Positions 16,634 to 45,676 of a stretch of DNA of 47,458 nt are shown here, one piece after another. The position numbers were made by a program, and so were the translations under genes. Origin of the DNA: an uncultured bacterium. GTDB taxonomy: Bacteria; Verrucomicrobiota; Lentisphaeria; Victivallales; Victivallaceae. The notes under the pieces are model-generated. The model had not been told where the DNA came from. It searched no databases and saw only the letters and a list, made by a program, of their open reading frames with translations. The stretch spans positions 1-47,458 of the forward strand of contig CACZPY010000336.1 of the NCBI GenBank assembly GCA_902783135.1, given 5' to 3'. Within the stretch, counting starts at the first letter, position 1, and each line of letters opens with the position of its first letter.

Positions 16634-16681
16634 CACAAAACATTCCGCTTCACATGGAGAGATAATGCATCAGGATGTTTT

Positions 16682-25485: not shown

Positions 25486-26712
25486 ATGAAAAAACGCAGA
25501 GCAGCCGTCACCGGGATCGGTGTCGTTTCGCCGCTGGGGAACTCCGCGGAGGAGTTGTACCGGGGGCTGATGGAGAACCGCTCCGGCATCCGCGCCATGA
25601 CCGAATGGCGCGACGAATTCGGCCGCAACATCGCCGGAGCGCCGGTGGTGCTGGATCCGGTGGAGGTCAAAAAGATCAGCCGCAAGGTCCGCCGCACGAT
25701 GGGCAACGCCGCGTTGTTTGCCGGACTTGCCGCTCAGGAGGCGGTGGCGCAGAGCGGGCTCGACCCGGCGCTTTTCACGTCGGGCCGGGTGGGATGCGTG
25801 ATCGGTTCCACGGTCGGCAGCGCCTCCAGCATGACCGAAGCCTGCGTCGCCGACTACGAGGGTCGCCGCAACGACCTGTCGGCATGTCATTTCTTCCGGC
25901 TGATGTCGCACTCGTCGAGTTTCAACGTCGCCGACATGTTCGGGATCAACGGCCCGCAGCTTTCGACCAACTCGGCGTGCGCCTCGGGGCTGCAGGCGCT
26001 GGGCACGGCGTTGGAGCTGATCCAGCTCGGCAAGGTCGACGCGGTGCTGGCGGGCGGTTCGGACGAATCCACTCCGCTCGTGGCGGCGTCGTTCCAACTG
26101 CTGTACGCTCTGGCGGAGGAGGAATCTCCGGAGCCGGACAAACTGTCGCGCCCCTTCGACGCGGGACGCACCGGGCTGGTGTGCGGCGAAGGCGCGGGCA
26201 TCCTCGTCGTCGAGGAACTGGAACACGCGAAGCGGCGCGGGGCGCCGGTCCTCTTCGAGATCGCCGGATACGCGACCAACTGTTCGGGTTGGCACGTCAG
26301 CCACTCGGACGAACTGCAGATCGCCAACTGCATGAAGACCGCGCTCGCCGACGCCGGGATCGCTCCCGGCGAGGTGGATTACGTCAGTGCCCACGCCACC
26401 GGCACCAAGGTCGGTGACGCCGCGGAGGCGGCGGCGATCCGCGCGGTGCTCGGCGGCGACACGCCGGTATCGAGCCTCAAGGGGCACATCGGGCATACGC
26501 TCGGCGCCTCGGGAGCACTGGAACTGGCGGCGGTGGCGGGGATGATGCGCGACGGCGTAGTGCTGCCGACGCGCAACTTGGAAAATGTGGAAGACTGCGC
26601 GGGCATTCTGCTGCCGCGCGAGGTGCAGGAGCGCAAGCTCCGCGTCTGCATAAAAAACAGCATCGCTTTCGGCGGGGTCAACACCTCGCTGGTGTGCCGC
26701 AGTCTCGACTGA
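25486..26712 (+). CDS. Beta-ketoacyl-ACP synthase (KAS I/II-type, active-site complete)
   Basis: 408 aa with Cys in ..TNSACASG.. and His in ..SAHATGT.. and ..GHIGHTLGASG... Confidence 0.9.
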   Translation: MKKRRAAVTGIGVVSPLGNSAEELYRGLMENRSGIRAMTEWRDEFGRNIAGAPVVLDPVEVKKISRKVRRTMGNAALFAGLAAQEAVAQSGLDPALFTSGRVGCVIGSTVGSASSMTEACVADYEGRRNDLSACHFFRLMSHSSSFNVADMFGINGPQLSTNSACASGLQALGTALELIQLGKVDAVLAGGSDESTPLVAASFQLLYALAEEESPEPDKLSRPFDAGRTGLVCGEGAGILVVEELEHAKRRGAPVLFEIAGYATNCSGWHVSHSDELQIANCMKTALADAGIAPGEVDYVSAHATGTKVGDAAEAAAIRAVLGGDTPVSSLKGHIGHTLGASGALELAAVAGMMRDGVVLPTRNLENVEDCAGILLPREVQERKLRVCIKNSIAFGGVNTSLVCRSLD

Positions 26713-26773
26713 CGGCAAAGGGCAGTTGCGGCATGGCAAGGAAAACTTCGAAAAAAAAGGAGCTTTTTCAATT

Positions 26774-27049
26774 ATGGATCGCGAAGAGATAATCAAGGCG
26801 GTGAACTCGATCTTCATCGAGCGCTTCGAACTGGAGGAATCGGCACTCTCTCCCGAAAAGAACATCATCGAAGATCTGCAGCTGGACAGCCTCGATCTGG
26901 TCGACATGATCGTCGGGCTGCAGCAGAAATTCGGGATCCAGCTCCGCGACAATCCGGAGATCCGCAACGTCCGCACTCTCGGCGACGTCTACGACCTCTT
27001 CGAGAAGCTGGCGAAGGAGCACCCGGAGATCGCGGAAAAACTCAAGTAG
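26774..27049 (+). CDS. Acyl carrier protein
   Basis: 91 aa from ATG 26774, preceded by AAAAGGAG. It has the phosphopantetheine-site motif DLQLDSLDLVDM. Confidence 0.85.
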   Translation: MDREEIIKAVNSIFIERFELEESALSPEKNIIEDLQLDSLDLVDMIVGLQQKFGIQLRDNPEIRNVRTLGDVYDLFEKLAKEHPEIAEKLK

Positions 27050-27069
27050 TCACCCGGACGCCCCCCGCC

Positions 27070-27825
27070 ATGATCCTGCTGCGGAGCACAGCCGTATATT
27101 TGGCGACCCTTCTATGGGCGCTGATATTCTGGGTGGCGGTGCTGCTGCCGGTGTTGGCGGTATCGGTTCTGCCCGCCGGGAAGCGGCGGCACTGCATGCG
27201 GGTGATGTTGCTGTGGTTCGGTCTGTCGACCGTGCGCTTCGCCTGGCGGCCGTTCTTCCGGATCCGCTTCGAGGATCGCGCCGGACGCGTCCGCAAACCG
27301 GGGATCGTGATCGCGAATCACCGTTCGGCGATCGACGGTTTTCTGGTGTCGCTGCCCAAACTAAGCATGGCGCAGACGGTCAACGACTGGCCGCTGCGGC
27401 TGCCGATCATCGGGCACGTCGCCCGGGCGGCGGGATATCTGAACATCACCAACTGGGATTACGATACGCTGCGTTTGCGGGCGGCGGAGGTCCTGGCGTC
27501 CGGGGACCCGATCGTATCGTACCCGGAGGGGACCCGCTCAGAGAGCCGCACGATGGGACCTTTCCGCAGCGGGATATTCCATGTGGCGTTGGAGTTGAAA
27601 GTGCCGATTTATATGTTGTGCATCGCAGGCAACGAATACATGCCGGACCGGAAGTTCCGCTTCCGGGAATTCCGCGATCTGGCGGTACGTTTTCTGGGAC
27701 CGCTGCCGGAGGAGGAGATACGGGAGTGCACCACGGCATATGCGTTAAAGATGAAGGTCTTCCGCCGGATGACCGAAGAACTGGCGTCGCTGGACGCGGA
27801 GCTGGATCATGAAAAAGCACTTTGA
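27070..27825 (+). CDS. PlsC-family (lysophospholipid / 1-acylglycerol-3-phosphate) acyltransferase, membrane-anchored
   Basis: N-terminal hydrophobic helix, HX4D box NHRSAIDG and the PEGTRS motif. Confidence 0.85.
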   Translation: MILLRSTAVYLATLLWALIFWVAVLLPVLAVSVLPAGKRRHCMRVMLLWFGLSTVRFAWRPFFRIRFEDRAGRVRKPGIVIANHRSAIDGFLVSLPKLSMAQTVNDWPLRLPIIGHVARAAGYLNITNWDYDTLRLRAAEVLASGDPIVSYPEGTRSESRTMGPFRSGIFHVALELKVPIYMLCIAGNEYMPDRKFRFREFRDLAVRFLGPLPEEEIRECTTAYALKMKVFRRMTEELASLDAELDHEKAL

Positions 27826-29098
27826 GTTGTCGGAGGATCGTTCTTTCGCCTCGCGCGAAGAAGTGAGAAGCCTGCAGGATCGTCTGCTCGCCGAACAGAT
27901 ACGCTATTGCCGGACCGAGTCGCCGTTCTACCGCGGCAGACTTGCCGGCTTCCCGGACCGGGAGTACGACTTCGATTCCCTCCGGGAACTGCCGACGACC
28001 TCGAAACAGGATCTGGCTGAACATAACGAAGAGTTTTTCGCCGTCCCCGTGACCGGGATCGCCGACATCTGCTTCACGAGCGGCACCACCGGTACGCCCT
28101 GCCGGATCGTCTACACGGCGGCCGACCTCGACCGCCTCGCCTACAACGATGCCTGCGGCTACCGCGCGGCGGGGATGCTCCCCGGCGAAAAGGTGCTTTT
28201 GACCTGTACCATCGACCGCTGCTTCATCGCGGGGCTGGCGTACTATCAGGGCGTGGTCAAACTCGGCGCGGCGGCGATCCGGAACGGGCTGAACACGCTC
28301 GACAGCCACGCCGAAGTGATCCGAACGCTCCGCCCGGAAAACATCGTCGGCGTCCCGAGTTTTCTCGCCAAACTGGGGCAGTATCTCGCCGATAACGGGA
28401 TCGACGGCAGCTGCGTCAGGCGCCTCGTCTGCATCGGGGAGCCCGCCCGCAACCGCAATATGGAGCCGACGCCGCTCGGAGCGAAGCTCGACGGATTTTG
28501 GCCGGGCGCGGTGCATTCGACTTACGCCTCCAGCGAGATCGTCACGAGTTTCACCGAATGTTCCGCCCGGTGCGGCGGTCATCCGCCCGCCGATCTGGCG
28601 GTGGTCGAGATCCTCGACGACGCGGGCAACCGCGTACCCGACGGCGAAGTCGGGGAAGTCACCGTGACGCCGCTGCAGGTGACGGGGATGCCGCTCGTGC
28701 GCTTCCGCACCGGCGACGTGAGTTTCATCATTCCGGAGCCGTGTCCCTGCGGCCGCGGCACGCTGCGGCTGGGACCGATCCTCGGGCGCAAGGCGCAGAT
28801 GCTCAAGGTGCGCGGCACGACGTTGTTCCCGAATGCATTTTTCAACGTTCTCGACGGCATCCCCGGCGTGGTCGAATATTACATGGAGGTCCGCGGCACC
28901 GCGCTCTCGGACGAGATCACGATCTGCGTCGCCTGCCGCGACGGCGCGTCTCCGGAAGATCTGGGCGTTCAAGAAAAATTGTACGGCCGCACCCGGATCC
29001 ACGTGCCGGTGGTCGCCGTCGACCCGGCGGCGGCGCGGCAAAAAGTTTTCGGCGTTTCGCGCAAACCGGTGCGCTTCTTTGATTTGAGGAAGTATTGA
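27809..29098 (+). CDS. PaaK-family adenylate-forming enzyme (coenzyme F390 synthetase-like; ApeH-position starter-activating ligase)
   Basis: 429 aa with the motif FTSGTTGTPCRIV. It overlaps the acyltransferase by 17 nt. Confidence 0.8.
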   Translation: MKKHFELSEDRSFASREEVRSLQDRLLAEQIRYCRTESPFYRGRLAGFPDREYDFDSLRELPTTSKQDLAEHNEEFFAVPVTGIADICFTSGTTGTPCRIVYTAADLDRLAYNDACGYRAAGMLPGEKVLLTCTIDRCFIAGLAYYQGVVKLGAAAIRNGLNTLDSHAEVIRTLRPENIVGVPSFLAKLGQYLADNGIDGSCVRRLVCIGEPARNRNMEPTPLGAKLDGFWPGAVHSTYASSEIVTSFTECSARCGGHPPADLAVVEILDDAGNRVPDGEVGEVTVTPLQVTGMPLVRFRTGDVSFIIPEPCPCGRGTLRLGPILGRKAQMLKVRGTTLFPNAFFNVLDGIPGVVEYYMEVRGTALSDEITICVACRDGASPEDLGVQEKLYGRTRIHVPVVAVDPAAARQKVFGVSRKPVRFFDLRKY

Positions 29099-29100
29099 CC

Positions 29101-30546
29101 ATGACCGTCTTCGATGTTCATAAGTTCGACTACACCCCGGAGGAGGCGCTCGACACGGCGAAGCAGGGGAAACTGCTCTCCGCCGAGATCGAGTTCAACC
29201 GCAGCTGCAACTACCGCTGTCCGTACTGCTACGCGGTGAACGACCCCGCCGCCGTGCTGCCGCACGAAACGGCGCTGCAGGTGATCCGCGACGTGGCGAA
29301 ACTCGGAGCGCGCAAGATCGTGGTGCTCGGCGGCGAACCATTGCTCTGCCGGAATCTTCGGGAATACATACTGCTCGCGGAATCGCTCGGCATGGGGACG
29401 GAGATATTCACCAACGCCGCGCTGATCGACGAATCTTGGGCGCGTTTCTTCTGCGAACACGAGTGCCGGGTGGCGGTCAAACTCAATTCGCTGGATCCGG
29501 AAATACAGGAGAAACTGACCGGGGTGCCGGGCGCGTTGGACAGCGCCCTGCGGGCGATCCGGCTGCTTCAGGACGCCGGCATGGACGAACGGCGCCTCGC
29601 GGCGAGTTCGGTGATCTGCTCGGCAAACGAACACGAGGCGGTCGCGCTGTGGAAGTATCTGCGGGACCACCGCATAAAACCCTATCTCGAGATCATGACC
29701 CCGCAGGGGCGGCTGCTGGAAAACCGCGATCTGGAGGTGCATCCGCACCGCCTGAAGGAGATCTTCGACGAGATCGCCGCCTTCGACCGTTCGCGGGGCT
29801 TCGAATGGGAGCCGCAGCCGCCGCTGGTGGGGGCGAAGTGCCTGCGTCACCAGTTCTCGTGCGTGGTCAGCGCCAACGGCGACGTGATCCCGTGCGTGGG
29901 GCTGACGGTGAAACTCGGCAACGTGTTGGAACAGCCGCTGCCGGACATTCTTTTCAACAGCAACATCATGCGGCGGCTCAAGGATTTCCGCAACACGATC
30001 AAGGGGCCGTGCCGCAGTTGCGACATGGCGGAAAACTGCTACGGCTGCCGGGGGGCGGCATACCAGCTTACGGGGGACTATCTGGCGAGCGATCCGCTCT
30101 GCTGGCGGAACTGCGACGAACTGTTGTTCAAGCCGCCGCTCATCCCCTGCGACGCGCCGCAATTCCTGCCCCACCGGCCGCCGATGACTATGGTCACCCG
30201 GCTGCTGGAGCTCGGCGAATGGTCCACCATCGAGGCGGTGATAACCCCGGACAACCGTTTTCTGCGCGACGGCGTGTTCGATCCCGAAGCGCTGCCCGAG
30301 ATCGTCGCGCAGTCCTGCGCCGCGGTCACCGGCTTCGAGCAGGCGGACCGGAACATCAAAGGGATGCTGACCGGATTGCGGAACTTCGAAGCGCTTTCTC
30401 CGGTGTACGGCGGCGACATTCTGCACGTGGTGGTGCGCGAGACCGCGGAACTGGACGATTATCACATCGCCGAGTTCCAGATCCGCCGCGCCGGAAACGG
30501 CGAACTGTGCGCGCGGGGAGAAATGTCGATATGCCGCATCCCCTGA
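29101..30546 (+). CDS. Radical SAM / SPASM-domain enzyme fused to a C-terminal COG4706-type hotdog (3-hydroxyacyl-ACP dehydratase-like) domain
   Basis: CX3CX2C at CNYRCPYC (29206-29229). A Cys-rich auxiliary-cluster region follows: C..C..GDVIPC then CRSCDMAENCYGC (30010-30048). The tail from about 30157 (LPHRPPMTMVTRLLE ... GMLTGLRNFEALSPVYGGDILH ...) resembles ApeI-type hotdog dehydratases. The start is ATG 29101; TTG 29095 would overlap the upstream stop. Confidence 0.85.
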   Translation: MTVFDVHKFDYTPEEALDTAKQGKLLSAEIEFNRSCNYRCPYCYAVNDPAAVLPHETALQVIRDVAKLGARKIVVLGGEPLLCRNLREYILLAESLGMGTEIFTNAALIDESWARFFCEHECRVAVKLNSLDPEIQEKLTGVPGALDSALRAIRLLQDAGMDERRLAASSVICSANEHEAVALWKYLRDHRIKPYLEIMTPQGRLLENRDLEVHPHRLKEIFDEIAAFDRSRGFEWEPQPPLVGAKCLRHQFSCVVSANGDVIPCVGLTVKLGNVLEQPLPDILFNSNIMRRLKDFRNTIKGPCRSCDMAENCYGCRGAAYQLTGDYLASDPLCWRNCDELLFKPPLIPCDAPQFLPHRPPMTMVTRLLELGEWSTIEAVITPDNRFLRDGVFDPEALPEIVAQSCAAVTGFEQADRNIKGMLTGLRNFEALSPVYGGDILHVVVRETAELDDYHIAEFQIRRAGNGELCARGEMSICRIP

Positions 30547-31139
30547 CACTGATATTGTGCCTGTCGGCGCTGACCGTTGCCGCGGCGGGACCGGATACCG
30601 CCGCCGGAATGCTGAAAATCGCGAAGCCCCGGGTGGTCGCCGCCGATTTCGTGCAGACACGCCGCCTCGCCGATCTCGACATGGAGGTGCGGATCACCGG
30701 CAGCATGGTCAGCGAACTGGACGGCAGACTGCGCTGGCAGGTCGATTCTCCCGTGCGGAGCGTGACCGTGATCGACCGGGAAAAACTCACCCATTACGAC
30801 GGCGAAACGAAACAATTGGCGGTGATCCGTCAGGATGGATTCCCGTGGCTAAAGGTCCTGCGCGATTCGCTGGACGACTGGCTCTCGGGCGACCGGGAGC
30901 GTCTCGCCGCGCGCTTCGATCTGACCGTGCCGAAACCGCGGGTCCTCCATTTGGAACCGCGCGACGCGACACAGCGAAAACTCTACAGAAGCGTCGAGAT
31001 CGAGCTTGCCGAAGATTCCCGTTCCATCGCCGCCATCCGGATCGAAGAGGGCGCCGGCGACCGCCTGGAGATCCGTTTCGCGCATATCCGCCACGATCCA
31101 CAGCTGCCGCCGGATATCTGGCGGATGCCGCCGCGATGA
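30531..31139 (+). CDS. LolA-like periplasmic lipid/lipoprotein carrier (ApeL position), signal peptide
   Basis: 202 aa read from the tail of track ORF 29436..31139. It starts at ATG 30531 with the signal peptide MPHPLTLILCLSALTVAAAG. The call rests on size, secretion signal and position in front of the MMPL exporter. Direct motif evidence is weak. Confidence 0.55.
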   Translation: MPHPLTLILCLSALTVAAAGPDTAAGMLKIAKPRVVAADFVQTRRLADLDMEVRITGSMVSELDGRLRWQVDSPVRSVTVIDREKLTHYDGETKQLAVIRQDGFPWLKVLRDSLDDWLSGDRERLAARFDLTVPKPRVLHLEPRDATQRKLYRSVEIELAEDSRSIAAIRIEEGAGDRLEIRFAHIRHDPQLPPDIWRMPPR

Positions 31140-34099: not shown

Positions 34100-34101
34100 T
34101 C

Positions 34102-34488
34102 ATGAGCGGCAATGATTCGGTGATCGGCGCGGAACTGCGTTCGCGCGTGAAGGATCTGCGGCAGACGGCGGAAAAGGAATACAGTTGCTCCATGGGTTTC
34201 GATCCGGGATTTCGGGGCTTCGAAGGGCATTTCGAGGGCAATCCGATCGTCCCCGGAGTCTGTCTGATCGAGACGGCGCGCGTCGTCGCCGAAACGGTAT
34301 TGGGCAGAAGTCTCGCCACGCGCCGCGTGCCGCAATGCCGTTTCCGCCGTCCGATCTTTGCGGAAGATCGCGCCGAGGTCAAACTGAAACTCGAAGCGGT
34401 GGAACCGGGTACGTGGAAACTCAATGCCGACATCCGTGTCGGCGGCGTCATCTGCGCACAGCTGCGCTCGAACGCGGAGGAGTTATGA
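34102..34488 (+). CDS. FabZ/FabA-like hotdog 3-hydroxyacyl-ACP dehydratase (ApeP position)
   Basis: Carries the motif FEGHFEGNPIVPGVCLIE. ATG 34102 was chosen; the in-frame GTG 34096 overlaps the upstream stop. Confidence 0.8.
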   Translation: MSGNDSVIGAELRSRVKDLRQTAEKEYSCSMGFDPGFRGFEGHFEGNPIVPGVCLIETARVVAETVLGRSLATRRVPQCRFRRPIFAEDRAEVKLKLEAVEPGTWKLNADIRVGGVICAQLRSNAEEL

Positions 34489-37768: not shown

Positions 37769-38694
37769 GCACACCGCAACCCCTCAACGCCAGCCGCGGC
37801 AACCGCTTCGGCATCGGATTCTTCCGGGTGCTTCTGCACTGCGGGACCTTCGGTTTCGCGCTGTGGTCCAGCCGGATCGTGACGTGGTTCTACGCCCGCT
37901 TCGACCGCCGCGCCTTCGCGGCTACGGCGGATTATCTGAAACTGCGTTTTCCGGAGGACGCGGATTCGGAGCGGCGGCTCCGGCGGCACTTCCACAAACT
38001 CCTGAACGAACTCGCCAAAATGCTGATCGTCTCGTACCGCATGGGCATCGGCAAAGCGCTGCCGATCGAGGAGGAGGACCGCCGCTTCCTCCCCGAAAAC
38101 GGCGGGGCGGTGATCGTCCTCGCCCACTACGACTGCTGGCAGGCGGCGATGGAACTCATGAACCACTGTTCCGGGAGGCGCATCAACATCATGGCGCACT
38201 CCGACCGCGCGATCGGAGCGGACAAATATCTGGCGCTGAAAGACAAAACCGGCTTCAACGTGATCTCGACCGAAGGTTTTTCCGGCGGTCTCGTCGAAGC
38301 GAGCGCCGCGCTGGAACGCGGCGAAGCGGTGATCCTCATGGGCGACCGGCCGGTCCCCGGCACGGCGGCGGTCGAAGCGGAATATCTGGGCGGCAGGATC
38401 GCCGTTCCGCTGTCGCCTTGGATGCTCGCGGCGCGCAACAACGTGCCGGCGATCCCGGTTTTGACCGAGCTCCGGGAAGATCCGCAGCGGATCGTGATCC
38501 GCTACTATCCGCCCGTGCCGCTCCCGGATTCTCCGGGGCACCGGCTCCGCGCGGCGGATCTCGCTCCGGCGGCGGCGCAGTACGTCAAACTGCTGGAGGA
38601 CGCCGCCCGGCGCAACCCCTACCGGGTGTTCCGCTTCGGCGGCACCGGAGAAGACAGATCGAATGTTCTCGAAACACCAAATAAAAGGGAATGA
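37765..38694 (+). CDS. LpxL/HtrB-family (lipid A-type late) acyltransferase-like protein
   Basis: 309 aa with an N-terminal hydrophobic segment. The region ..VIVLAHYDCWQAAME.. sits where this family has H-x-G-N-W-E. The call is from general pattern and context. Confidence 0.6.
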   Translation: MSTPQPLNASRGNRFGIGFFRVLLHCGTFGFALWSSRIVTWFYARFDRRAFAATADYLKLRFPEDADSERRLRRHFHKLLNELAKMLIVSYRMGIGKALPIEEEDRRFLPENGGAVIVLAHYDCWQAAMELMNHCSGRRINIMAHSDRAIGADKYLALKDKTGFNVISTEGFSGGLVEASAALERGEAVILMGDRPVPGTAAVEAEYLGGRIAVPLSPWMLAARNNVPAIPVLTELREDPQRIVIRYYPPVPLPDSPGHRLRAADLAPAAAQYVKLLEDAARRNPYRVFRFGGTGEDRSNVLETPNKRE

Positions 38695-38697
38695 CCA

Positions 38698-38967
38698 ATG
38701 AACGAAGATGTGAGCGCTTTCCGCAGGGAACTCAAGGAAAACCTCGTCGACTGGCTGCAGCTGATGGACAAGACCGCCGACGACGTCAAGGACGAAGAAC
38801 CGCTCTTCAAGGAGGGGTTGGGGCTGGACTCGTTGGACGCGGTCGAGATCGTGATCATGATGCAGCGCAAGTACGGTATCCCGCAGTCCGCGGTGGAGAA
38901 CCGGCGCGAGATCTTCGCGACCTTCGCCACGCTCGCGGACTTCATCATGGCCAACCGCACCAAATGA
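38698..38967 (+). CDS. Acyl carrier protein (second ACP)
   Basis: 89 aa with the motif GLGLDSLDAVEIV. AAAAGGGA lies upstream of the ATG. Confidence 0.85.
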   Translation: MNEDVSAFRRELKENLVDWLQLMDKTADDVKDEEPLFKEGLGLDSLDAVEIVIMMQRKYGIPQSAVENRREIFATFATLADFIMANRTK

Positions 38968-38977
38968 GGTCTTGACC

Positions 38978-40879
38978 ATGTCACGCGCCGGAATCAGCGG
39001 AATGGGCGTCGTCTCGGCGCTCGGCGACGGGACGACAGTCACCCGGAGCGCCCTGTACGCCCCGGCGACGCCGACGCCCCGGGTGCCGGGCCGCTTCGAA
39101 ACGAAACTGGATCTGCCGGTCTTCGAGATCCCGGAACCCGACGTCGCGGCGGAAGCGGGCACCGGTCTGCCGGTGCGGTTCCTGCTGCACGCCCTCGACG
39201 AGGCGCTGACGAATGCGAAGATCTCACGCGATGAACTGCGCGCGCGGCGCGTCGGAATCGCCGTCGGCACCACCGTGGCGTGCCAGTTGGACAACATCCC
39301 CTGCTACGACCGCATCCGCAAGGGCGATCTGAGCGACCTTTCCCCCTCGCTGCCCTATGTGACGCGGATGCCCGCCGAGTATCTGCGGCGGCTTCTCGGC
39401 ACGACCGGACCGGCGGTCACGGTCTCCAACGCCTGCGCCTCCGGTGCGGACGCGCTGATGATCGCGCTGGAGTGGCTGCGCACCGGACGCTGCGACCTCG
39501 TGATCGCGGGCGGCTGCGACTCGGTGAGCAAAGTCGCCTTCAACGGCTTCAACGCGCTGCGCGTCTGCTCCGGCGCGCCCTGCCGCCCCTTCGACGCGGA
39601 GCGTTCGGGGCTGAACCTCGGCGACGCCGCCGGAGTACTGATCCTCGAAGCGCCGGAGCACGCCGCCGCGCGCGGCGTCAAAGCGGAATACGAACTCGGC
39701 GGCGCGGGCAAGACCGCCGACGGTTTCCACATCACCCAGCCGGAAAGTTCCGGAAAGGAACTGGAGCGGGCGATACGCCTCGCCCTCGAACAGGCGGAAC
39801 TGACGCCAAACGATATCGAATTCGTGAACGCCCACGGCACGGGAACACCGGTCAACGACCGCGTCGAAGGCGCGGTGCTGGCACGGGTATTCGGCGGCAA
39901 GGTGCGCTACCAGTCGACCAAGGCGCTCACCGGGCACACCCTCGGTGCGGCGGGGGCGATCGAAGCGATATTCTCGTGCCTCATGCTCGCAGAGCGCCGC
40001 GCCGCCGCCGGACGCCGCTGCGAACACCCCGATCCGGAAGTGCCGGTGCCGCCGCTTCCGGAAAGCGTGTCCGTAACCGGGAATGCCGCCGTTTCGACCT
40101 CGCTCGCCTTCGGCGGCTCGAACACCGCGCTCGCGCTCCGCAAATGCCGACCTGAGGTTCCGGATATCGGGATCGGAAAATCGTATATCGCCGGATTCGC
40201 ATTCCTCACGCCCCATGTCCCGGATAAGGAGGAACTCGTCGCGCTCTGCCGCAAGTACGCGCTGCGCCGTCCCGACCGGCTGACCCAACTGGCGCTGGCG
40301 GCGGCGGAACGGCTCGCCCCCCTCCCCGGCGGAGCCGATACCGCACTCATCACGGTCACCGGTTACGGTCCCGCCTCGACCACCTGCCGGGTGATCGACG
40401 ACATATTGGACTATCCCGAGGAGGAGATACTGCCGACGGGTTTTTCGCACTCGGTGATCAACGCGGCGGCATCCTATATCAGCGCGGCGCACCACATCCA
40501 CGGACCGACCTTCGCGCTGGTCGGGTTCGACGACCCCTTCCGCGAAGCGGCGGATCTGGCGCAGGTGCTGCTCTCGGAAGAAGTCTGCCGACGGGTGCTG
40601 ATCGTCGCCGCCGACGAGGGAAGTCCGATCTCGCGCGCGGTGGAAACGCTGCGCCGCGACGGGATCCCCGCCGCCGCCGAAGGGGCTTGCGCGCTGCTGC
40701 TCGCCGCCGATCCGGCGGAAAACCGCCTGGGCACGCTGGAGATCGCGGCGGAAACAGGAAACGACGACCGGTGTCTGCCCTGCGGCATCCCGAAGTCGCT
40801 GATCGCGCAACTCGGTTCCGCCGACTCCGGCTCCCGCACGATACTCGCAGGAGTGAAGCCGCCGTCGTGGAGGTCGTAA
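38978..40879 (+). CDS. Beta-ketoacyl synthase fused to a C-terminal KS-like, Cys-less (CLF-like) domain
   Basis: The KS part has ..VSNACASG.., ..NAHGTGT.. and ..TGHTLGAAG.. and ends near ..AFGGSNTALALRK (about 40150). A ~230-aa second domain follows (..ILPTGFSHSVINAAASYISAAHHIHGPTFAL..VLIVAADEG..) without a catalytic triad. ATG 38978 was chosen; TTG 38972 heads the track ORF. Confidence 0.8.
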   Translation: MSRAGISGMGVVSALGDGTTVTRSALYAPATPTPRVPGRFETKLDLPVFEIPEPDVAAEAGTGLPVRFLLHALDEALTNAKISRDELRARRVGIAVGTTVACQLDNIPCYDRIRKGDLSDLSPSLPYVTRMPAEYLRRLLGTTGPAVTVSNACASGADALMIALEWLRTGRCDLVIAGGCDSVSKVAFNGFNALRVCSGAPCRPFDAERSGLNLGDAAGVLILEAPEHAAARGVKAEYELGGAGKTADGFHITQPESSGKELERAIRLALEQAELTPNDIEFVNAHGTGTPVNDRVEGAVLARVFGGKVRYQSTKALTGHTLGAAGAIEAIFSCLMLAERRAAAGRRCEHPDPEVPVPPLPESVSVTGNAAVSTSLAFGGSNTALALRKCRPEVPDIGIGKSYIAGFAFLTPHVPDKEELVALCRKYALRRPDRLTQLALAAAERLAPLPGGADTALITVTGYGPASTTCRVIDDILDYPEEEILPTGFSHSVINAAASYISAAHHIHGPTFALVGFDDPFREAADLAQVLLSEEVCRRVLIVAADEGSPISRAVETLRRDGIPAAAEGACALLLAADPAENRLGTLEIAAETGNDDRCLPCGIPKSLIAQLGSADSGSRTILAGVKPPSWRS

Positions 40880-40915
40880 CATCCCCCCCGAAAACCCATT
40901 TTTGACGGTGAAGAT

Positions 40916-40944
40916 TTGCAATCCGCGCCGAAGTATTGTACATT
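40916..40944 (+). promoter_or_regulatory. Candidate internal promoter (TTGCAA-17 nt-TACATT) in the only sizeable gap of the cluster
   Basis: Read in the 162-nt AT-richer intergenic region between 40879 and 41042. Confidence 0.3.
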
Positions 40945-41041
40945 ATTATCATATCGTGTTAAAGTCCATGCCGCCCGCGATGCGGAGCATCTGTCGTGAC
41001 GGCGTAAAACAATCGGTCACAGGCCGGGGAAAGGTGAAATC

Positions 41042-41215
41042 ATGAAGAAAAAGACCCTTGTCAGCATCATCATCGTCGTCGTCATCGCCGCCGCCGGAGC
41101 CGTCGCGTGGTACTGCTACAACGAATCGCAGAAGAGCGGCTTCGTCAAGGGCGCCGAGAAGACCGAAAAGTGGAGCAAGGACGTCGCGCGCGACACCAAG
41201 AACCTCTTCAAGTAA
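41042..41215 (+). CDS. Small single-pass membrane protein (57 aa), below the ORF-track length cut-off
   Basis: My translation: MKKKTLVSIIIVVVIAAAGAVAWYCYNESQKSGFVKGAEKTEKWSKDVARDTKNLFK, stop TAA 41213-41215. AAAGGTGA lies 5 nt upstream of the ATG. It has a KKK n-region, an 18-20-aa hydrophobic helix and an amphipathic, Lys-rich tail. Confidence 0.5.
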   Translation: MKKKTLVSIIIVVVIAAAGAVAWYCYNESQKSGFVKGAEKTEKWSKDVARDTKNLFK

Positions 41216-41287
41216 TTCGGCATCCGAATCTTGATCAACGCCTTAAAGCGCGTAATCATTCGAGCCGCACCCCGCCGGTTGCCGCGC

Positions 41288-42217
41288 ATGATCGCCGGCG
41301 GCGGGGTGATGTTTTTGCTGTCCGGGTGTTTCCTCATGGTCTCGCCGGAGCATCCGTGCGGAGAGATCCCCCAAGTCCGTCCCGGCGACGCCGGTTACTA
41401 CCAGTTGAGCGACGGCGACGATTTCAGTTGTATGCGCATCCATCTGCCGCCCGACTCCGTGCCGCGTCCGGTGCCGGCGGCGGTGATCTTCCCCGGCGGC
41501 GCCTACGGGGTGCTCGCCATCGACAAGGAGGGCAACGACTACGCCCGTTTTCTGAACCGCTACGGCATCGCCGGGATCGTCGTCAAGTATCCGCTCGGAT
41601 CGCTCTTCGGGCACTTCCGCCGTCACCCGGATATGCTCAACGCCGCACAGCGAGCGATCCGCCTGACGCGCTGTTACGCCCCGCAGTTGGGGATCGACCC
41701 GCATAAGATCGGCGTGATGGGTTCCTCGGCGGGAGGTCATCTGGCGGGGCTCGCCATCGTATGCGACAACCGCCCCGATCCCCGCGCCGCGGATCCCGTG
41801 GAGCGGCTGTCCGCCCGCCCGGACTTCGCGATCTTATGTTACCCCGTGGTCACCATGGAGGGCGAACGCGCCCACAAACTCAGCCGCAGCAATCTGATCG
41901 GCGACACGCCGTCTTCGGAGCTCCAAAGGGAACTGTCGCTGGAACAGCAGATACCGGACGACTGTCCGCCGGTTTTTCTGTGGACGACCCGGGAGGACCG
42001 CACCGTCGATCCGGAAAACTCGAGGATGCTCGAGATCGCGTTGCTTCGCAAAAATATACCGCACCGCTTCATCCTGTACGAACGCGGACCGCACGGCATG
42101 GGGCTCTTGTCGCCCTCCGAAGCCGAAAAGTACCCCGAGACCGCCAAGTGGTCGCTGGAGATGATAAAATTCCTGCGCGAACAGGGGATCCTCGCCCCGC
42201 AGCCGGAGGCGAAATGA
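41288..42217 (+). CDS. Alpha/beta-hydrolase (esterase/lipase-type) lipoprotein
   Basis: The start was taken at MIAGGGVMFLLSGC (lipobox LSGC). It has the nucleophile elbow GVMGSSAGGH and a C-terminal ..GPHGMG.. His region. Confidence 0.75.
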   Translation: MIAGGGVMFLLSGCFLMVSPEHPCGEIPQVRPGDAGYYQLSDGDDFSCMRIHLPPDSVPRPVPAAVIFPGGAYGVLAIDKEGNDYARFLNRYGIAGIVVKYPLGSLFGHFRRHPDMLNAAQRAIRLTRCYAPQLGIDPHKIGVMGSSAGGHLAGLAIVCDNRPDPRAADPVERLSARPDFAILCYPVVTMEGERAHKLSRSNLIGDTPSSELQRELSLEQQIPDDCPPVFLWTTREDRTVDPENSRMLEIALLRKNIPHRFILYERGPHGMGLLSPSEAEKYPETAKWSLEMIKFLREQGILAPQPEAK

Positions 42218-43464
42218 TGGAACGCCGCGTGGTCGTGACCGGGCTCGGCGCCGTGTCCTGCGCCGGGAACAGCGTGCCGGAATTGTGGGAAAGCCTCGTT
42301 TCGGGGCGCAGCGGCATCGGCAAAATCACCCTCTTCGACCCGGCTGGACTCTCCTGTCCGGTCGGCGAGGTGCGCGACTTCGTCCTCACGGACGTGACCG
42401 GCAAGGAGGCGCGGCGGATGTCGCGCAACACCAAATTCGCGATCGGCGCCGCCAGCGAAGCAATGGCGATGGCGCGCCTCGAACGCGACCCCGAAAAACG
42501 CGGCGGCGACCCGTTCCGCTTCGGCGTGCTCTTTGCCAACGCCGCGGGCGGCGTCGAAGAGTACGATCAAAACGCCGAAACGCTCGCCCGGCGCGGTCCC
42601 GACGGGATATCCCCATTCTTCGTGCCCAAGTACATCTCCAACGCCGCGGGCGGCATGCTGGCGATCCGCTGGGGACTGCGCGGACCCAATTTCAACCCGG
42701 TGTCGGCGTGCGCCTCCGGCGCCCACGCGATCGGCGAAAGCTGGTGGATGATCCGGCGCGGCGACGCCGAGTTGATGCTCGCAGGCGGCACCGAAGCCTG
42801 TCTGACGCGGCTGCTGACGAGCGGCTTCAATTCTCTCACGGCGCTGAGCCGTTCCACCGCCCCCGAGCGCGCCTGCCGCCCCTTCGATCTGAACCGCGAC
42901 GGCTTCGTGCTGGCGGAGGGGGCGGGCGCATTGGTGCTGGAGGAACTGGAACACGCCCGGAAACGCGGCGCGGAGATCCTCGCCGAAGTCGCCGGCTACG
43001 GCGCCAGCTGCGACGCCACCCACATCACCGCCCCCGATCCCTCGGGTGCGGGGTTGGCGTATGCGATACGCCGCGCGTTGGAAACGGCGGGCGCCCTTCC
43101 CTCCGAGGTGGGCGCGGTCTACGCCCACGGCACCGGCACGGTCGCCAACGACCGGGTCGAAGCGAAGACGCTCGCCGCGGTCTTCGGCGACGCACTGCCG
43201 GGGATCCGGGTCAGCGCCATAAAGAGCATGATCGGCCACGCGCTTTCGGCGTCGGGAGCGCTCGCCGCGATCGCGGCGGTGCGGACCTTGGAGACCGGGA
43301 TACTGCCGCCGACGATCAATTACACGACGCCCGATCCGGAGTGCGCACTCGACGTGAACCCCGGAAAAGCGGCGAAGATCGATCCTGCGATGGTGCTGAT
43401 CGACGCCCTGGGGTTCGGCGGCCACAACGCCGCGTTGATATTCAAAAGATGGGAAGGACGATGA
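42214..43464 (+). CDS. fabF: Beta-ketoacyl-ACP synthase II
   Basis: 416 aa with ..PVSACASGAH.., ..YAHGTGT.. and ..MIGHALSASG... ATGA overlap with the hydrolase. Confidence 0.9.
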   Translation: MMERRVVVTGLGAVSCAGNSVPELWESLVSGRSGIGKITLFDPAGLSCPVGEVRDFVLTDVTGKEARRMSRNTKFAIGAASEAMAMARLERDPEKRGGDPFRFGVLFANAAGGVEEYDQNAETLARRGPDGISPFFVPKYISNAAGGMLAIRWGLRGPNFNPVSACASGAHAIGESWWMIRRGDAELMLAGGTEACLTRLLTSGFNSLTALSRSTAPERACRPFDLNRDGFVLAEGAGALVLEELEHARKRGAEILAEVAGYGASCDATHITAPDPSGAGLAYAIRRALETAGALPSEVGAVYAHGTGTVANDRVEAKTLAAVFGDALPGIRVSAIKSMIGHALSASGALAAIAAVRTLETGILPPTINYTTPDPECALDVNPGKAAKIDPAMVLIDALGFGGHNAALIFKRWEGR

Positions 43465-44195
43465 TGAACGAAAAAAATCGCACCGCATTGATAATCGGCG
43501 GCTGCCGGGGCATCGGACGGGAGATCACGCTCCGGTTGGCGCGGGACGGCTTCGACGTGGTGCCGAGTTGCCGGAAGCGCGGCGCGGAGGCGGAAGCCTT
43601 GCTCGACGAAGTGCGGCGCGCCGGGGGGAATTGCCGGATACTGGAACTCGACGTCCGCGACCGCGACGGCGCCCGCCGCATCCTTGACGCCGAATTCGCC
43701 GACCGCGCCCCCGACGCGGTCGTCTACAACTCCGGCATCGCCAAGGACAACCTCTTCGTCTTCATGGACGGCGAGCAGTGGGACGACGTGCTGGACACCA
43801 ATCTCAAAGGCTTCTACAACACCGTGCAGCCGCTCGTCTTCGGCATGCTCGCCAAACGCGGCGGGCGGATCGTGGCGATCAGTTCCGCCTCGGGGCAGAC
43901 CGGTCAGGCGGGACAGGTGAATTACTCCGCCTCCAAGGCGGGACTGATCGGCGCGGTCAAGGCGCTCGCCCGCGAAGTCGGCCGCAAGGGGGTGCTGGTC
44001 AACGCCGTCGCCCCGGGAGTCATCGATACCGAAATGACGAAGGACCTCCCCAAAGACATGATGCTGCCGCTGATCCCGCTGCGGCGCTTCGGCAGCGCGG
44101 CGGAGGTGGCGGGGGTCGTGAGTTTCCTCTGCGGCCCCGACAGCACCTACATCCACGGGCAGGTGATCGCGGTCAACGGCGGATTGGTCATATGA
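43461..44195 (+). CDS. fabG: 3-oxoacyl-ACP reductase (SDR; ApeQ/FabG-type)
   Basis: 244 aa with ..IIGGCRGIGR.., ..NSGI.. and ..YSASKAG.. (YxxxK). The ..IHGQVIAVNGG.. C-terminus is typical of FabG. Confidence 0.9.
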   Translation: MMNEKNRTALIIGGCRGIGREITLRLARDGFDVVPSCRKRGAEAEALLDEVRRAGGNCRILELDVRDRDGARRILDAEFADRAPDAVVYNSGIAKDNLFVFMDGEQWDDVLDTNLKGFYNTVQPLVFGMLAKRGGRIVAISSASGQTGQAGQVNYSASKAGLIGAVKALAREVGRKGVLVNAVAPGVIDTEMTKDLPKDMMLPLIPLRRFGSAAEVAGVVSFLCGPDSTYIHGQVIAVNGGLVI

Positions 44196-45676
44196 CGGAC
44201 AAAAAGCAAACCGCGGTCGTCGGCTCCGGCGCCGGCGGTCTGACCCTTGCGCTGCTGCTCGCCCGCGCGGGCCGCAGGGTCACGCTGATCGAAAGCCAAC
44301 CGGAGATCGGCGGCTATCTGCGGCGGTTCACGAGAAACGGCGTTCGCTTCGATACCGGCTACCACTTTTCCGGCGGCTACACCAACATCATGCCGCAGAT
44401 GATGCGGGTGCTGGGCATGGACGATGCCGCGCGCGCCGACGCCATAGCCAACCGTATCGTACTGCGGCAGAGCGGCGACGATCTGACCGTCCCCGCCCGC
44501 TGCGGATACCGCGGCGCCGAAGAAGCGTTCTGCAGGCACTTCCCCGGCGACGCCGCGGCGCTGCACCGGCTGTTCGAAGCGCTCCGGGAGATATGGCGGG
44601 ATACGCCGATGCGCGATTTGAGCGATATCACGCCGCCGAAATTGGAGATCTCACGTTACGACATGATCACGGTCCGGGATTTCTGCGACTCCATCGCTCT
44701 CAGGTCGACGGCGTCCGCTGCTGCGGGCAGCGTTGCGATGTGCCACGGATCGCTGCCCTGCGAAGCGACGATGACCTTCCACGCCCGCGTGGCTTTTGCG
44801 CTCTACGACGATCTCGCGCGTCCCTTCGGCGGCGGCGATCCGATTATCGCCGCCTTCAAGCGCGAAGCGGCGAAACTCGGCATCACGATCCGCACCGGGA
44901 CGTCGCTGCGGCGTTTCGACGATATGGACGGCAACGGCGAGTGCCATTTGGCGCACTTGAGCGACGGGACCGATCTCGAAGTGGATCAGGTGTTTTTCGC
45001 CGTTCACCCGCTCGCGGTGCAGGACGTTCTGCCGGAACGGGCGTTCACTCCGTCGCTGTGCCGCCGTCTCCGGCGGCAGCAGGATTCGACGAGTTTCTTC
45101 TGCTCGTACTACACGGTGGACGACGAAGCGGAACTGACTCCGGGACTGGTCTCGCTGCTTTCGCACAACGATATAGACGCCATATTGCGGGGAGAAAACG
45201 CCTACAGCACCGGCTATCTGCTCGGGCGCGAAGCCGATGCGCAGGGGCGGATGCGCTCCACGGTGGCGGCGTTCCGCACCATGCCGCCGGGCGTTCCGGA
45301 GGCTCCGGCGACCCGCGCCGGACGGCGGGACGACCGGCGCTATCAGGAGTTCAAGGCGCGCATCACGGAGGAGATCGCCGACGATCTCACGCAGATCTGC
45401 CCCGAACTCAGGGGGCGTCTGCACCCAGCGGCGGCGGGGACCCCGCTCACCTGCCGCGACTACGATCCGCCGACGGGCAGCGCCTACGGGGTGCGCAACA
45501 TCTGCGGGCAGTCGCGGCTCTGCGGGCGGCTGCCGGTGCGCAACTTCTTCATAGCGGGGCACAGTGCGCTCGTGCCCGGAGTGATGGGCACGATGCTGGC
45601 CTCGTTCACCGTATTCCGCTTCGCCCTCGGCGAGGAGGTCTACCGCCGGCTGATCCGGGAGGCGGGATTGGTCTGA
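44192..45676 (+). CDS. FAD/NAD(P)-dependent oxidoreductase, phytoene-desaturase (CrtI)-like family
   Basis: 494 aa. It has the N-terminal dinucleotide fold VVGSGAGGLTLALLLARAGRRVTLIES..IGG and a C-terminal ..FFIAGHSALVPGVMGTM.. FAD-binding-like motif. ATGA overlap with fabG. Confidence 0.7.
   Translation: MTDKKQTAVVGSGAGGLTLALLLARAGRRVTLIESQPEIGGYLRRFTRNGVRFDTGYHFSGGYTNIMPQMMRVLGMDDAARADAIANRIVLRQSGDDLTVPARCGYRGAEEAFCRHFPGDAAALHRLFEALREIWRDTPMRDLSDITPPKLEISRYDMITVRDFCDSIALRSTASAAAGSVAMCHGSLPCEATMTFHARVAFALYDDLARPFGGGDPIIAAFKREAAKLGITIRTGTSLRRFDDMDGNGECHLAHLSDGTDLEVDQVFFAVHPLAVQDVLPERAFTPSLCRRLRRQQDSTSFFCSYYTVDDEAELTPGLVSLLSHNDIDAILRGENAYSTGYLLGREADAQGRMRSTVAAFRTMPPGVPEAPATRAGRRDDRRYQEFKARITEEIADDLTQICPELRGRLHPAAAGTPLTCRDYDPPTGSAYGVRNICGQSRLCGRLPVRNFFIAGHSALVPGVMGTMLASFTVFRFALGEEVYRRLIREAGLV

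Follow-up and report, generated by a model that had tools for sequence, protein, structure and literature searches.

Introduction

Three kinds of described gene clusters stand closest to the locus reported here, namely those for aryl polyenes (APEs), those for flexirubins, and a set of clusters encoding radical S-adenosylmethionine (SAM) enzymes in anaerobes. The locus is a run of 20 genes (g01-g20) at positions 25486-45676 of contig CACZPY010000336.1 (GenBank assembly GCA_902783135.1), from an uncultured bacterium of the Victivallaceae (Lentisphaeria); the whole stretch analysed, 47,458 nt in length, is called the window hereafter. In Xenorhabdus, the aryl polyene lipid (APEL) consists of an aryl-hexaene esterified to GalNAc-phosphate-glycerol, plus conjugated C26:5 and saturated acyl chains; ApeE and ApeF are the carriers on which the two polyenes are assembled, ApeD acylates the lysolipid, ApeJ glycosylates and then adds the aryl polyene, and ApeM, ApeL and ApeN export to the outer membrane (10.1101/2020.12.19.423268). 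Flexirubin clusters are represented by flxA-flxY of Chitinophaga pinensis and by their equivalent in Flavobacterium johnsoniae; FlxY is a 4-coumarate-CoA ligase, which also accepts cinnamate, phenylpropionate and indole-propionate (PMC3992019), and FlxV (Cpin_1874) of the C. pinensis cluster is annotated as a RetSat-like reductase.

Regarding anaerobes, clusters resembling fatty acid synthases of type II (FASII) and carrying radical SAM genes were reported from Kuenenia stuttgartiensis (kuste3335-3352), Desulfotalea psychrophila, Geobacter and Pelobacter, their components being SAM radical enzymes, phytoene-desaturase-like proteins, a phenylacetyl-CoA-ligase-like protein, a glycosyltransferase, a novel membrane protein and non-canonical FabF paralogues, for which an anaerobic polyunsaturated fatty acid (PUFA) pathway supplying ladderane synthesis was proposed (Rattray et al., 2009). 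Expression of Kuenenia genes in Escherichia coli later gave no product, and neither Kuste3336 nor Kuste3607 could replace CrtI (Javidpour et al., 2016; PMC4790861). Current work focuses on the anammox 'Cluster I', six genes (Kuste3603-3608) that its authors call unique to ladderane-producing bacteria and that comprise amxACP, amxFabZ, amxFabF2/amxFabFmut, a phytoene dehydrogenase homologue and a B12 radical SAM gene. Full-text searches for literature linking aryl polyene or flexirubin clusters to radical SAM enzymes or to anaerobes found nothing relevant; the recent anammox papers examined do not mention aryl polyenes, nor do they discuss the APE/flexirubin-type anchoring and export nature of the radical SAM clusters. 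The antiSMASH program has a 'ladderane' rule, which would flag clusters of this sort.

A packed operon of the APE and flexirubin family

Across 25486-45676, calling of open reading frames (ORFs) in the 47.5-kb, high-GC window gave 20 packed plus-strand ORFs (Table 1), whose coding frames have a third-position GC content (GC3) of 0.73-0.88 and whose junctions overlap in 13 of 19 cases, 10 of these by 4 nt. A first-pass annotation, made from the sequence alone, had described nineteen plus-strand genes; region, strand and domains stand, but the gene count does not. Its reading of the locus as an Ape-type system, i.e. a type II FAS/polyketide synthase (PKS) with lipid anchoring and envelope export, is corroborated by gene-by-gene homology. 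Two annotated Ape-type plasmid clusters, located by tblastn with the GT2-DUF2062 protein, served as references: BLASTP homologues were found for 17 of the 20 genes in the flexirubin-type cluster of Persicobacter psychrovividus plasmid pPP6 (L006) and for 13 of the 20 in the Ape cluster of the Ralstonia solanacearum megaplasmid (L005).

Among the features that define the APE family, the following are represented: a ketosynthase (KS) with a truncated chain length factor (CLF) partner, two acyl carrier proteins (ACPs), an ApeI/ApeP hotdog pair (g08 and the C-terminal part of g05) together with an ApeQ ketoreductase (g19), and an anchoring and export set (g03, g12+g13, g09, g06 and g07). The assignment of the cluster to the APE/flexirubin family is held with high confidence. 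As an explanation of the whole, and judging from sequence homology, we favour with moderate confidence a specialised type II PKS/FAS-like operon of this family, of an anaerobe subtype in which an ApeP-like dehydratase is fused to a radical SAM/SPASM enzyme. The first-pass identification of a PaaK-type ligase, two ACPs, further KSs, a ketoreductase (KR), two hotdog dehydratases (DHs) and a 4HBT thioesterase (TE) is backed by Pfam and NCBIfam domains, and that of PlsC-type and LpxL-type acyltransferases, a GT2-DUF2062 protein, a LolA-like carrier and an MMPL exporter by these same databases and by BLASTP. In a related locus (L087), whose FabF-like KS shares 74% amino acid identity with that of the window, gene order, architecture and flanking genes are identical; the cluster is therefore a conserved arrangement rather than a chance run of ORFs.

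What the cluster lacks is equally characteristic. As had been listed in the first-pass annotation, no methyltransferase, halogenase, TAL/HAL, DarA/DarB, FabD or phosphopantetheinyl transferase gene occurs in the cluster or among the scanned ORFs of the window, and the same holds for FabH, enoyl reductases and the UbiC/XanB2-type chorismate-using genes. Within the cluster, Pfam scans gave neither Acc (AccABCD carboxylase) nor FabI/K/V domains, nor any recognisable counterpart of ApeN (DUF3261) or ApeG (COG4648).

Table 1. Genes of the cluster, with positions in the window and the basis of each identification (scores in bits)
Gene	Position	Strand	Predicted product	Basis
g01	25486..26712	+	ApeR-like KS, 408 aa	Pfam ketoacyl-synt N and C; triad intact
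g02	26774..27049	+	ACP, 91 aa, DSL motif	PP-binding; PRK05350 67.5 vs. cutoff 65
g03	27070..27825	+	PlsC-type acyltransferase, ApeD-like, HRSAID (HX4D) motif	Pfam Acyltransferase
g04	27809..29098	+	PaaK/FlxY-type adenylating ligase	NCBIfam FlxY_rubin 391.8, cutoff 520
g05	29095..30546	+	Radical SAM + SPASM + ApeP-like hotdog dehydratase domain, 483 aa	Pfam Radical_SAM, SPASM
g06	30531..31139	+	LolA-like periplasmic carrier, ApeL-like, signal peptide	Pfam LolA, LolA_3; weak NCBIfam LolA2_flexi
g07	31136..34099	+	RND/MMPL-type exporter, ApeM/FlxU-like, 987 aa	NCBIfam HpnN E 6e-15, HAE3 E 9e-14
g08	34096..34488	+	ApeI-like hotdog dehydratase, HFEGNPIVPG motif	Pfam ApeI-like 29.2 (cutoff 28.5), FabA
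g09	34485..34958	+	4HBT thioesterase, ApeK-like	Pfam 4HBT_2, 4HBT; matches both reference-cluster thioesterases
g10	34951..36006	+	N-terminally short KS, 351 aa	Pfam; Cys-His-His triad intact
g11	36003..36605	+	ApeC-like CLF-type half-KS, 200 aa, no catalytic triad	Predicted fold
g12	36602..37768	+	GT2 glycosyltransferase + DUF2062 membrane domain (ApeJ N-terminal part/FlxT-like)	Pfam
g13	37765..38694	+	LpxL-type acyltransferase (ApeJ C-terminal-part-like)	Pfam Lip_A_acyltrans
g14	38698..38967	+	ACP, 89 aa, DSL motif	PP-binding; PRK09184 72.1 vs. cutoff 70
g15	38972..40879	+	KS fused to ApeC-like CLF domain, 635 aa	ketoacyl-synt N/C; Ketoacyl-synt_2 at residues 431-579
g16	41042..41215	+	57-aa single-pass membrane protein	ORF, hydrophobic N-terminus
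g17	41231..42217	+	Lipoprotein esterase (BD-FAE/Abhydrolase_3), lipobox LSGC, GSSAG	Pfam
g18	42214..43464	+	FabF-like KS, 416 aa, triad intact	NCBIfam fabF 474 vs. cutoff 493.75
g19	43461..44195	+	FabG-type ketoreductase, ApeQ/FlxB-like	Pfam adh_short, KR
g20	44192..45676	+	FAD flavoprotein, amine-oxidase/CrtI superfamily, FlxV-like (RetSat-like)	Pfam Amino_oxidase, residues 15-465

The radical SAM-dehydratase fusion and the chain-modifying enzymes

The feature that sets the subtype apart is g05, which carries a CNYRCPYC (CX3CX2C) motif and seven invariant SPASM cysteines, followed by a hotdog part with the invariant residues P359, H360, D386, E402 and Q406 (a Pro-His plus acidic/Gln motif). 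In its AlphaFold model (predicted local distance difference test score, pLDDT, of 87), the N-terminal part is structurally nearest PqqE, anSME, SkfB, CteB and SuiB, while the C-terminal hotdog domain superposes on FabZ with a template modelling (TM) score of 0.8; from this model, the enzyme is taken to be a genuine two-domain protein. The C-terminal part scores 17.7 bits against Pfam ApeP-like, below the cutoff, and family members carry PF22817; by BLASTP it matches a 143-aa hotdog protein of the Persicobacter cluster (E 1e-8). For the radical SAM domain, the closest NCBIfam models are oxidative decarboxylases of the AhbD/NirJ type, all below cutoff. Candidate reactions of g05 may range over C-C cross-linking or cyclisation, desaturation and oxidative decarboxylation.

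The second dehydratase, g08, matches 3esi and 6qsr_A in the PDB as well as the C-terminal dehydratase domain of the Ralstonia ligase gene (BLASTP). The ketoreductase g19 is 47% identical to the Ralstonia KR and 44% to that of Persicobacter; it passes the NCBIfam FabG PRK05653.1-5 cutoff and scores 264 bits against FlxB_rubin_SDR. Regarding the flavoenzyme g20, the first-pass annotation had counted a CrtI-like enzyme among the departures from described gene sets, a view that has to be abandoned since g20 matches over its full length (residues 3-491, E 1e-34) a 499-aa Persicobacter oxidoreductase in the FlxV position, which from its place in the cluster we infer to be the FlxV counterpart. Similarity of g20 to crtI_fam and to PDS/CrtI structures in the PDB is limited to the N-terminal FAD-binding fold.

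Starter ligase, carrier proteins and ketosynthases

By sequence, g04 is likely to activate the starter. It is 38% identical to the ligase of the Persicobacter cluster, and its best PDB matches are PaaK structures (phenylacetate-CoA ligases), with 2-hydroxyisobutyryl-CoA synthetase also among the matches. A 401-aa 'phenylacetate-CoA ligase' of the PDB, 9s3l_A, matches g04 too. Since aryl-supply genes are absent and g04 falls below the FlxY equivalog cutoff, the case for an aryl starter is drawn from the ligase family, and we put an aryl starter at slightly less than an even prospect. A serious alternative, given that the window encodes no enzyme to provide or decorate an aryl ring (TAL/HAL, chorismate-lyase-type and ring-methyltransferase genes are all missing), is that the ligase loads a non-aromatic acid and that the product is a conjugated fatty-acyl glycolipid akin to the C26:5 part of APELs. 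Characterised Ape clusters already make such a non-aryl conjugated C26:5 chain (10.1101/2020.12.19.423268), and the PaaK family includes non-aryl enzymes, as illustrated by the 2-hydroxyisobutyryl-CoA synthetase. It is nonetheless considered a good deal less probable than an aryl-primed chain, as the best family match of g04 is the characterised aryl-acid ligase FlxY, followed by phenylacetate-CoA ligases. Aryl acids are besides readily available in the gut and rumen.

Both ACPs have a specific counterpart in each reference cluster, g02 being homologous to the Ralstonia ACP2 and g14 being 43% identical to the Persicobacter ACP that precedes the KS/CLF pair. Motif searches showed the Cys-His-His triad to be kept in each of the four full KSs, i.e. 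g01, g10, the N-terminal part of g15 and g18. The best NCBIfam model for g01 is PRK09116 (342 bits vs. a cutoff of 470), and the protein is 37.6% identical to the Ralstonia KS in the ApeR position. The short KS g10 is 35% identical to a 370-aa 'KS N-terminal-like' protein in the same position in Persicobacter, where a hypothetical protein of about 194 aa comes next. At that place in the window stands g11, which gave no match in Pfam, in NCBIfam, by phmmer against the PDB or by BLASTP against the C-terminal part of g15. Its AlphaFold model (pLDDT 89.4) has as top Foldseek match 6qsp_B (E 6e-4, probability 1.0), that is ApeC, the chain length factor of the Xenorhabdus aryl-polyene KS, and all remaining matches are thiolase-fold KS proteins; the pairing of the genes at 34951 and 36003 as a KS and a CLF-like partner, already suspected in the first-pass annotation, is supported by this best match to ApeC. 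A word-indexed search returned 120 homologues of g11, every named one of which belongs to the Lentisphaeria, and tblastn located relatives of 29-43% identity that hold the same place in the clusters of Nitrospirota, Geobacter and Brocadiaceae.

In g15, the KS part is 32% identical to a Persicobacter KS that is followed there by a separate CLF gene, and the C-terminal 235 residues match 7f28_A, a 204-aa 'Ketoacyl_synth_N' ApeC-like chain (E 1.3e-4). Taken together, sequence and model support two putative KS/CLF units in the cluster, the split g10:g11 and the fused g15, of ApeO-ApeC type. The second-best PDB sequence match for the KS part of g15 is the recently deposited 9s5h_B, a '3-oxoacyl-ACP synthase'. 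The entry codes 9s5h/9s5i and 9s3l/9s45 are neighbours, and these entries might be proteins of an anammox cluster.

The fourth KS, g18, raises the question of housekeeping, i.e. that the KS, ACP, KR and DH genes are the general fatty acid synthase of the organism. In favour of this, g18 comes near the FabF equivalog cutoff (474 vs. 493.75 bits) and g19 passes a FabG model. Judged from the window, the part of the genome covered here, the idea is nevertheless very improbable and was rejected. Firstly, the cluster is devoid of FabD, FabH, FabI/K/V and Acc. Secondly, in the two homologue contexts examined, the homologue with 74% identity occupies the same position of the same specialised cluster (L087), whereas that with 51% identity lies in a fabF-rnc arrangement with fabZ-lpxA nearby (L088). 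Besides, the hotdog proteins are of the ApeI/ApeP type, export and anchoring genes lie all round, and Kuenenia has a separate canonical FabF. As a side observation on the metagenomic contig L088 (6001-7242 and 10517-11724), its FabF homologue has RNase III directly downstream of it and fabZ-lpxA some 3 kb farther in the same direction, which is a housekeeping setting, in contrast to that of g18.

Lipid anchoring, export and accessory proteins

Counterparts in both reference clusters were found by BLASTP for all the anchoring and export genes. The acyltransferase g03 matches a Ralstonia PlsC acyltransferase and the Persicobacter FlxU-like protein, and g06 the LolA genes of both clusters. The glycosyltransferase g12 is 38% identical to the N-terminal part of the Ralstonia ApeJ-like protein and, over its full length, 30% identical to the Persicobacter GT2-DUF2062 protein, while g13 matches the C-terminal part of that same ApeJ-like protein and a Persicobacter lipid A acyltransferase. 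The exporter g07 is closer to the Persicobacter FlxU-like protein (E 4e-26) than to the Ralstonia ApeM-like one (5e-5). It ends in an extension of about 195 aa (33500-34099), located after an internal hydrophobic segment and a LAGC lipobox-like motif at residue 793; of the lipoprotein domain announced there by the first-pass annotation, the hydrophobic stretch and the LAGC motif are present, but the extension has no Pfam match even at E 10. Fusion of an ApeN/LolB-like (DUF3261) domain would be one possible origin.

Among the accessory proteins, g16 has no family match in profile scans, and its position in L087 is held by a 76-aa ORF. The esterase g17 is PaeX/AxeA1-like in NCBIfam, below cutoffs, and tblastn mapping of the related loci confines it to the Lentisphaeria clade of the window. 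It is only by speculation that this carbohydrate-esterase-like protein would be the analogue of the polysaccharide deacetylase of flexirubin and Kuenenia clusters.

The presence of this module bears on the earlier proposal of an anaerobic route to polyunsaturated fatty acids or hydrocarbons, in which the flavoenzyme desaturates acyl-ACPs that radical SAM enzymes process further (Rattray et al., 2009). The component list published for Kuenenia and Desulfotalea does match that of the window, D. psychrophila contains polyunsaturated hydrocarbons, and decarboxylation of the AhbD/NirJ type, to which the radical SAM domain of g05 comes nearest below cutoff, could in principle give a terminal alkene. 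Yet the complete APEL-style module for anchoring and outer-membrane export would serve no purpose in a pathway to bulk fatty acids or hydrocarbons, and the flavoenzyme is the FlxV counterpart of aerobic flexirubin clusters. In addition, complementation of CrtI failed with both Kuste3336 and Kuste3607, heterologous expression yielded no PUFA (PMC4790861), and a connection of the hydrocarbons with the cluster was never shown. On these grounds, the proposal is judged improbable for the window.

Distribution and subtypes of the family

Relatives of g05 were searched in one genome per species over 185,579 species, which gave 577 of them, and taxonomy and synteny were drawn from the best 80 of the 577. 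Homologues with the same three-domain architecture are abundant. The closest are found in Lentisphaeria metagenome-assembled genomes (MAGs) from goat rumen (77-79% identity), which places the source of the window among such organisms. Cultured carriers are Victivallis vadensis DSM 14823 and Oligosphaera ethanolica DSM 24202, whose clusters are of the subtype with two B12 radical SAM genes. In that best 80, the carriers belong to Lentisphaerota, MAGs labelled Verrucomicrobia/Kiritimatiellae, Nitrospirota/Thermodesulfovibrionia, Geobacter/Geobacterales, Omnitrophota and Ratteibacteria, together with one Brocadiaceae MAG.

As established by tblastn, a common gene order runs across phyla, namely KR, flavoenzyme, KS, ACP, PlsC, ligase, radical SAM-hotdog fusion, LolA and exporter, and then ApeI-type DH, TE, KS, g11-like CLF, two B12-binding radical SAM genes where present, and GT2-DUF2062. 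This order is kept in the MAG labelled Brocadiaceae (L063), in Geobacter/Geobacterales (L073, L082 and L084) and in Nitrospirota (L049-L086), even though identity of the fusion in these phyla distant from Lentisphaerota is 41-44%. Such distant synteny points to a cluster that is either old or has been passed horizontally between anaerobes.

Most relatives carry B12-binding radical SAM genes, which sit between the CLF-like gene and GT2-DUF2062 (e.g. L001 17722-20319 and L003 18951-20354); in the 39 loci that could be judged, 27 have two of them, 3 have one and 9 have none, the last including the clade of the window and two Victivallaceae loci. With both L001 proteins as queries, tblastn found no such gene anywhere in the window, where g11 and g12 overlap by 4 nt. 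Since 30 of the 39 loci carry at least one, the window represents a minority, reduced subtype, its lineage having lost the two B12-dependent radical SAM genes of most relatives. In addition, the clade of the window has the KR/flavoenzyme pair at the other end of the operon, together with the lipoprotein esterase, the FabF-like KS and the small membrane protein.

The distribution also argues against a ladderane-type cyclobutane lipid pathway, for which a syntenic cluster in the Brocadiaceae-labelled MAG (L063) and the former listing of related Kuenenia genes as ladderane candidates could be invoked. The family is present in many non-anammox phyla, no ladderanes were found in D. psychrophila, and the window is devoid of a B12 radical SAM gene, so that this pathway has next to no probability here. 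As a member of the anammox Cluster I, the locus was rejected for its Lentisphaeria host, the missing B12 radical SAM gene and its different architecture.

Proposed pathway and product

The most likely product, going by the homologies above, would be a radical-modified and probably aryl-primed polyene lipid sent to the outer membrane; that it is an exported polyene lipid is somewhat favoured. Each step that follows is modelled on homologous enzymes. The ligase g04 would activate a carboxylic acid starter, most likely aryl-propenoic or aryl-propionic, which would come from primary metabolism or from the gut since the cluster has no TAL gene. Chains would be carried on the dedicated ACPs g02 and g14 and extended by g10:g11 and g15, plus g01 and g18, each round involving ketoreduction by g19 and then dehydration by the pair formed by g08 and the g05 hotdog domain. 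Because no canonical enoyl reductase is present, the acyl chains would be conjugated polyenes, possibly of two different kinds as in Xenorhabdus APELs. The radical SAM/SPASM domain tethered to the dehydratase would perform an oxygen-independent radical modification of an ACP-bound intermediate, while g20 may saturate, isomerise or desaturate a C=C/C-C bond, and g09 would edit or release the chain. In the manner of ApeD and ApeJ, g03, g12 and g13 would build a glycosylated acyl-glycerolipid anchor and attach the polyene to it; the g07 exporter and the g06 carrier would then bring the lipid to the outer membrane, and g17 may remodel it in the envelope.

Several points weigh against this radical-modified polyene lipid. 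No product is known for any member of the radical SAM subtype, and heterologous expression of Kuenenia genes yielded no new lipid (PMC4790861). No gene for supply or tailoring of an aryl head group (TAL/HAL, UbiC/XanB2 or methyltransferase) is at hand, and no function is assigned to g16 or to the C-terminal domain of g07, nor a role to g17. If the flavoenzyme acted as an enoyl reductase, which it could, the chain need not be a full polyene. Finally, aryl polyene lipids are linked in aerobes to oxidative-stress protection and biofilm formation; protection from reactive oxygen species, the proposed role of APEs, answers no obvious need in strict anaerobes.

Surroundings of the cluster

On both flanks, the cluster is bordered by functionally unrelated genes of the opposite strand, i.e. 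genes for a xylose-isomerase-like TIM-barrel protein and an amidohydrolase upstream, and for a Dabb-domain protein and an SNF-family transporter downstream. The sole sizeable gap in the operon, 162 nt long and AT-rich (40880-41041), lies just before the 57-aa gene g16. It may hold an internal promoter, although a consensus scan of 40.7-46.2 kb found no plus-strand promoter-like site and no convincing terminator there. The block after the gap, comprising the 57-aa protein, the esterase, the FabF-like KS, the KR and the flavoenzyme, is at the opposite end of the cluster in some relatives.

Elsewhere in the window, the minus strand of 1-21600 is taken up by a large exopolysaccharide or capsule biosynthesis locus, with genes for GDP-mannose 4,6-dehydratase, two epimerase/dehydratases, UDP-glucose/GDP-mannose dehydrogenase, glycosyltransferases of the GT1, GT2 and GT4 families, a PGA_cap protein, alanine racemase and a DUF362 protein, as well as several 490-550-aa ORFs with no Pfam match. 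At its 5' (upstream) end is a NusG-like gene, perhaps of RfaH type (21032-21601). Inside the locus, a low-GC island on the minus strand (12900-16650; GC 0.48-0.50 vs. about 0.60 around) carries genes for a flippase of the Wzx type (Polysacc_synt_3), a GT2 glycosyltransferase and a protein of 306 aa without a Pfam match, and looks like a horizontally exchanged variable cassette of the serotype type.

Significance

Radical SAM clusters of this sort having been noticed bioinformatically in 2009, the window is one ordinary member of a known family. The first-pass annotation had presented the radical SAM enzyme as a departure, which is right with respect to characterised Ape and flexirubin sets but not as a novelty, given the 2009 description and the 577 relatives. 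The lipoprotein esterase and the 57-aa protein, likewise put forward as departures, keep that standing, so that these two and the radical SAM/SPASM domain are unusual against characterised Ape/flexirubin clusters. The value thus lies at the family level rather than in this locus, that is in the occurrence, among cultured non-anammox anaerobes, of an APE/flexirubin-like pathway to an envelope lipid whose radical SAM enzyme is fused to a dehydratase.

More tentatively, and with the balance of probability against it, the SPASM-dehydratase fusion, present in at least six mostly anaerobic phyla, could catalyse a new oxygen-independent radical reaction on an ACP-tethered acyl or polyketide chain, leading to a new class of outer-membrane polyene lipids. 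The subtype of the window, free of B12 radical SAM genes, would then be a natural minimal system for isolating the chemistry of the fusion, and the real role of the non-specific anammox 'ladderane candidate' cluster would also be explained. Loci with and without B12 radical SAM genes offer a natural comparison. If the favoured reading of the locus as an APE-type operon holds, Lentisphaeria of the gut and rumen, along with hundreds of further anaerobic species, would make an aryl-polyene-like envelope lipid, and the anaerobe version would use radical SAM chemistry that is without characterised precedent on fatty-acyl substrates. One of the four anammox 'ladderane candidate' clusters would be recast as a widespread APE-type lipid cluster, and V. 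vadensis and O. ethanolica are cultured non-anammox carriers where the product could be sought.

Comparison with described systems

With flexirubin clusters, the likeness of the window is extensive. It shares with Persicobacter the FlxY-type ligase, the flavoenzyme in the FlxV position, the FlxB-like KR, the short KS, the ACP and KS with its CLF, both types of hotdog protein, the thioesterase, LolA, GT2-DUF2062, the PlsC/exporter protein and the lipid A-type acyltransferase, and the local order DH, TE, short KS, protein of about 200 aa, ACP, KS and CLF is common to both. Missing from the window, on the other hand, are TAL (FlxA), a methyltransferase, a halogenase, the C45 peptidase-like FlxW, a polysaccharide deacetylase and DarA/DarB; it has the ApeP-like hotdog fused to radical SAM/SPASM and a KS fused to the CLF (g15), and it adds the esterase, the FabF-like KS and the 57-aa protein. 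Flexirubin hosts are aerobic Bacteroidota, whereas that of the window is an anaerobic Lentisphaeria bacterium. As TAL (FlxA) and DarA/DarB are missing, the cluster should not, strictly speaking, be classed among the flexirubin clusters.

With the Ape cluster of Ralstonia are shared the ApeR-like KS, both ACPs, ApeD, ApeI, ApeK, ApeL, ApeM, ApeQ and ApeJ, the latter split into g12 and g13. Matches to the PDB entries 6qsp, 6qsr and 7f28 support the KS:CLF and ApeI:ApeP logic of Ape systems, and an enoyl reductase is absent from both. Compared with the Ape clusters of E. coli CFT073 and Xenorhabdus doucetiae, the ligase is of the PaaK type instead of a FadD-type ApeH, the ApeB methyltransferase, the COG4648 ApeG and a recognisable DUF3261 ApeN are missing, and a radical SAM/SPASM domain, a FlxV-like flavoenzyme, a second KS/CLF pair and an esterase are added.

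Regarding the anammox Cluster I, the resemblance consists of a KS/CLF-like heterodimer, a dedicated ACP and dehydratase, a phytoene-desaturase-like flavoenzyme and a radical SAM enzyme, but no ligase, glycosyltransferase, acyltransferase, LolA or exporter is listed for it, and its radical SAM enzyme is B12-dependent, with no SPASM-hotdog fusion. The clusters of Rattray et al. (2009) come nearer, being likened here by description and not by sequence: their component list as published matches that of the window, in which a radical SAM/SPASM gene lies beside a PaaK-like ligase, LolA and an exporter, with a phytoene-desaturase-like protein and a glycosyltransferase. The window differs from the Kuenenia, Desulfotalea and Geobacter clusters in having neither B12-type radical SAM genes nor SAM methylases, and the published gene order of Kuenenia is unlike its own. 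Syntenic relatives of the window cluster occur in Geobacter/Geobacterales MAGs and in a Brocadiaceae MAG. By its component list and by these syntenic Geobacter and Brocadiaceae loci, the window cluster looks like a member of a widespread family that is not specific to anammox bacteria.

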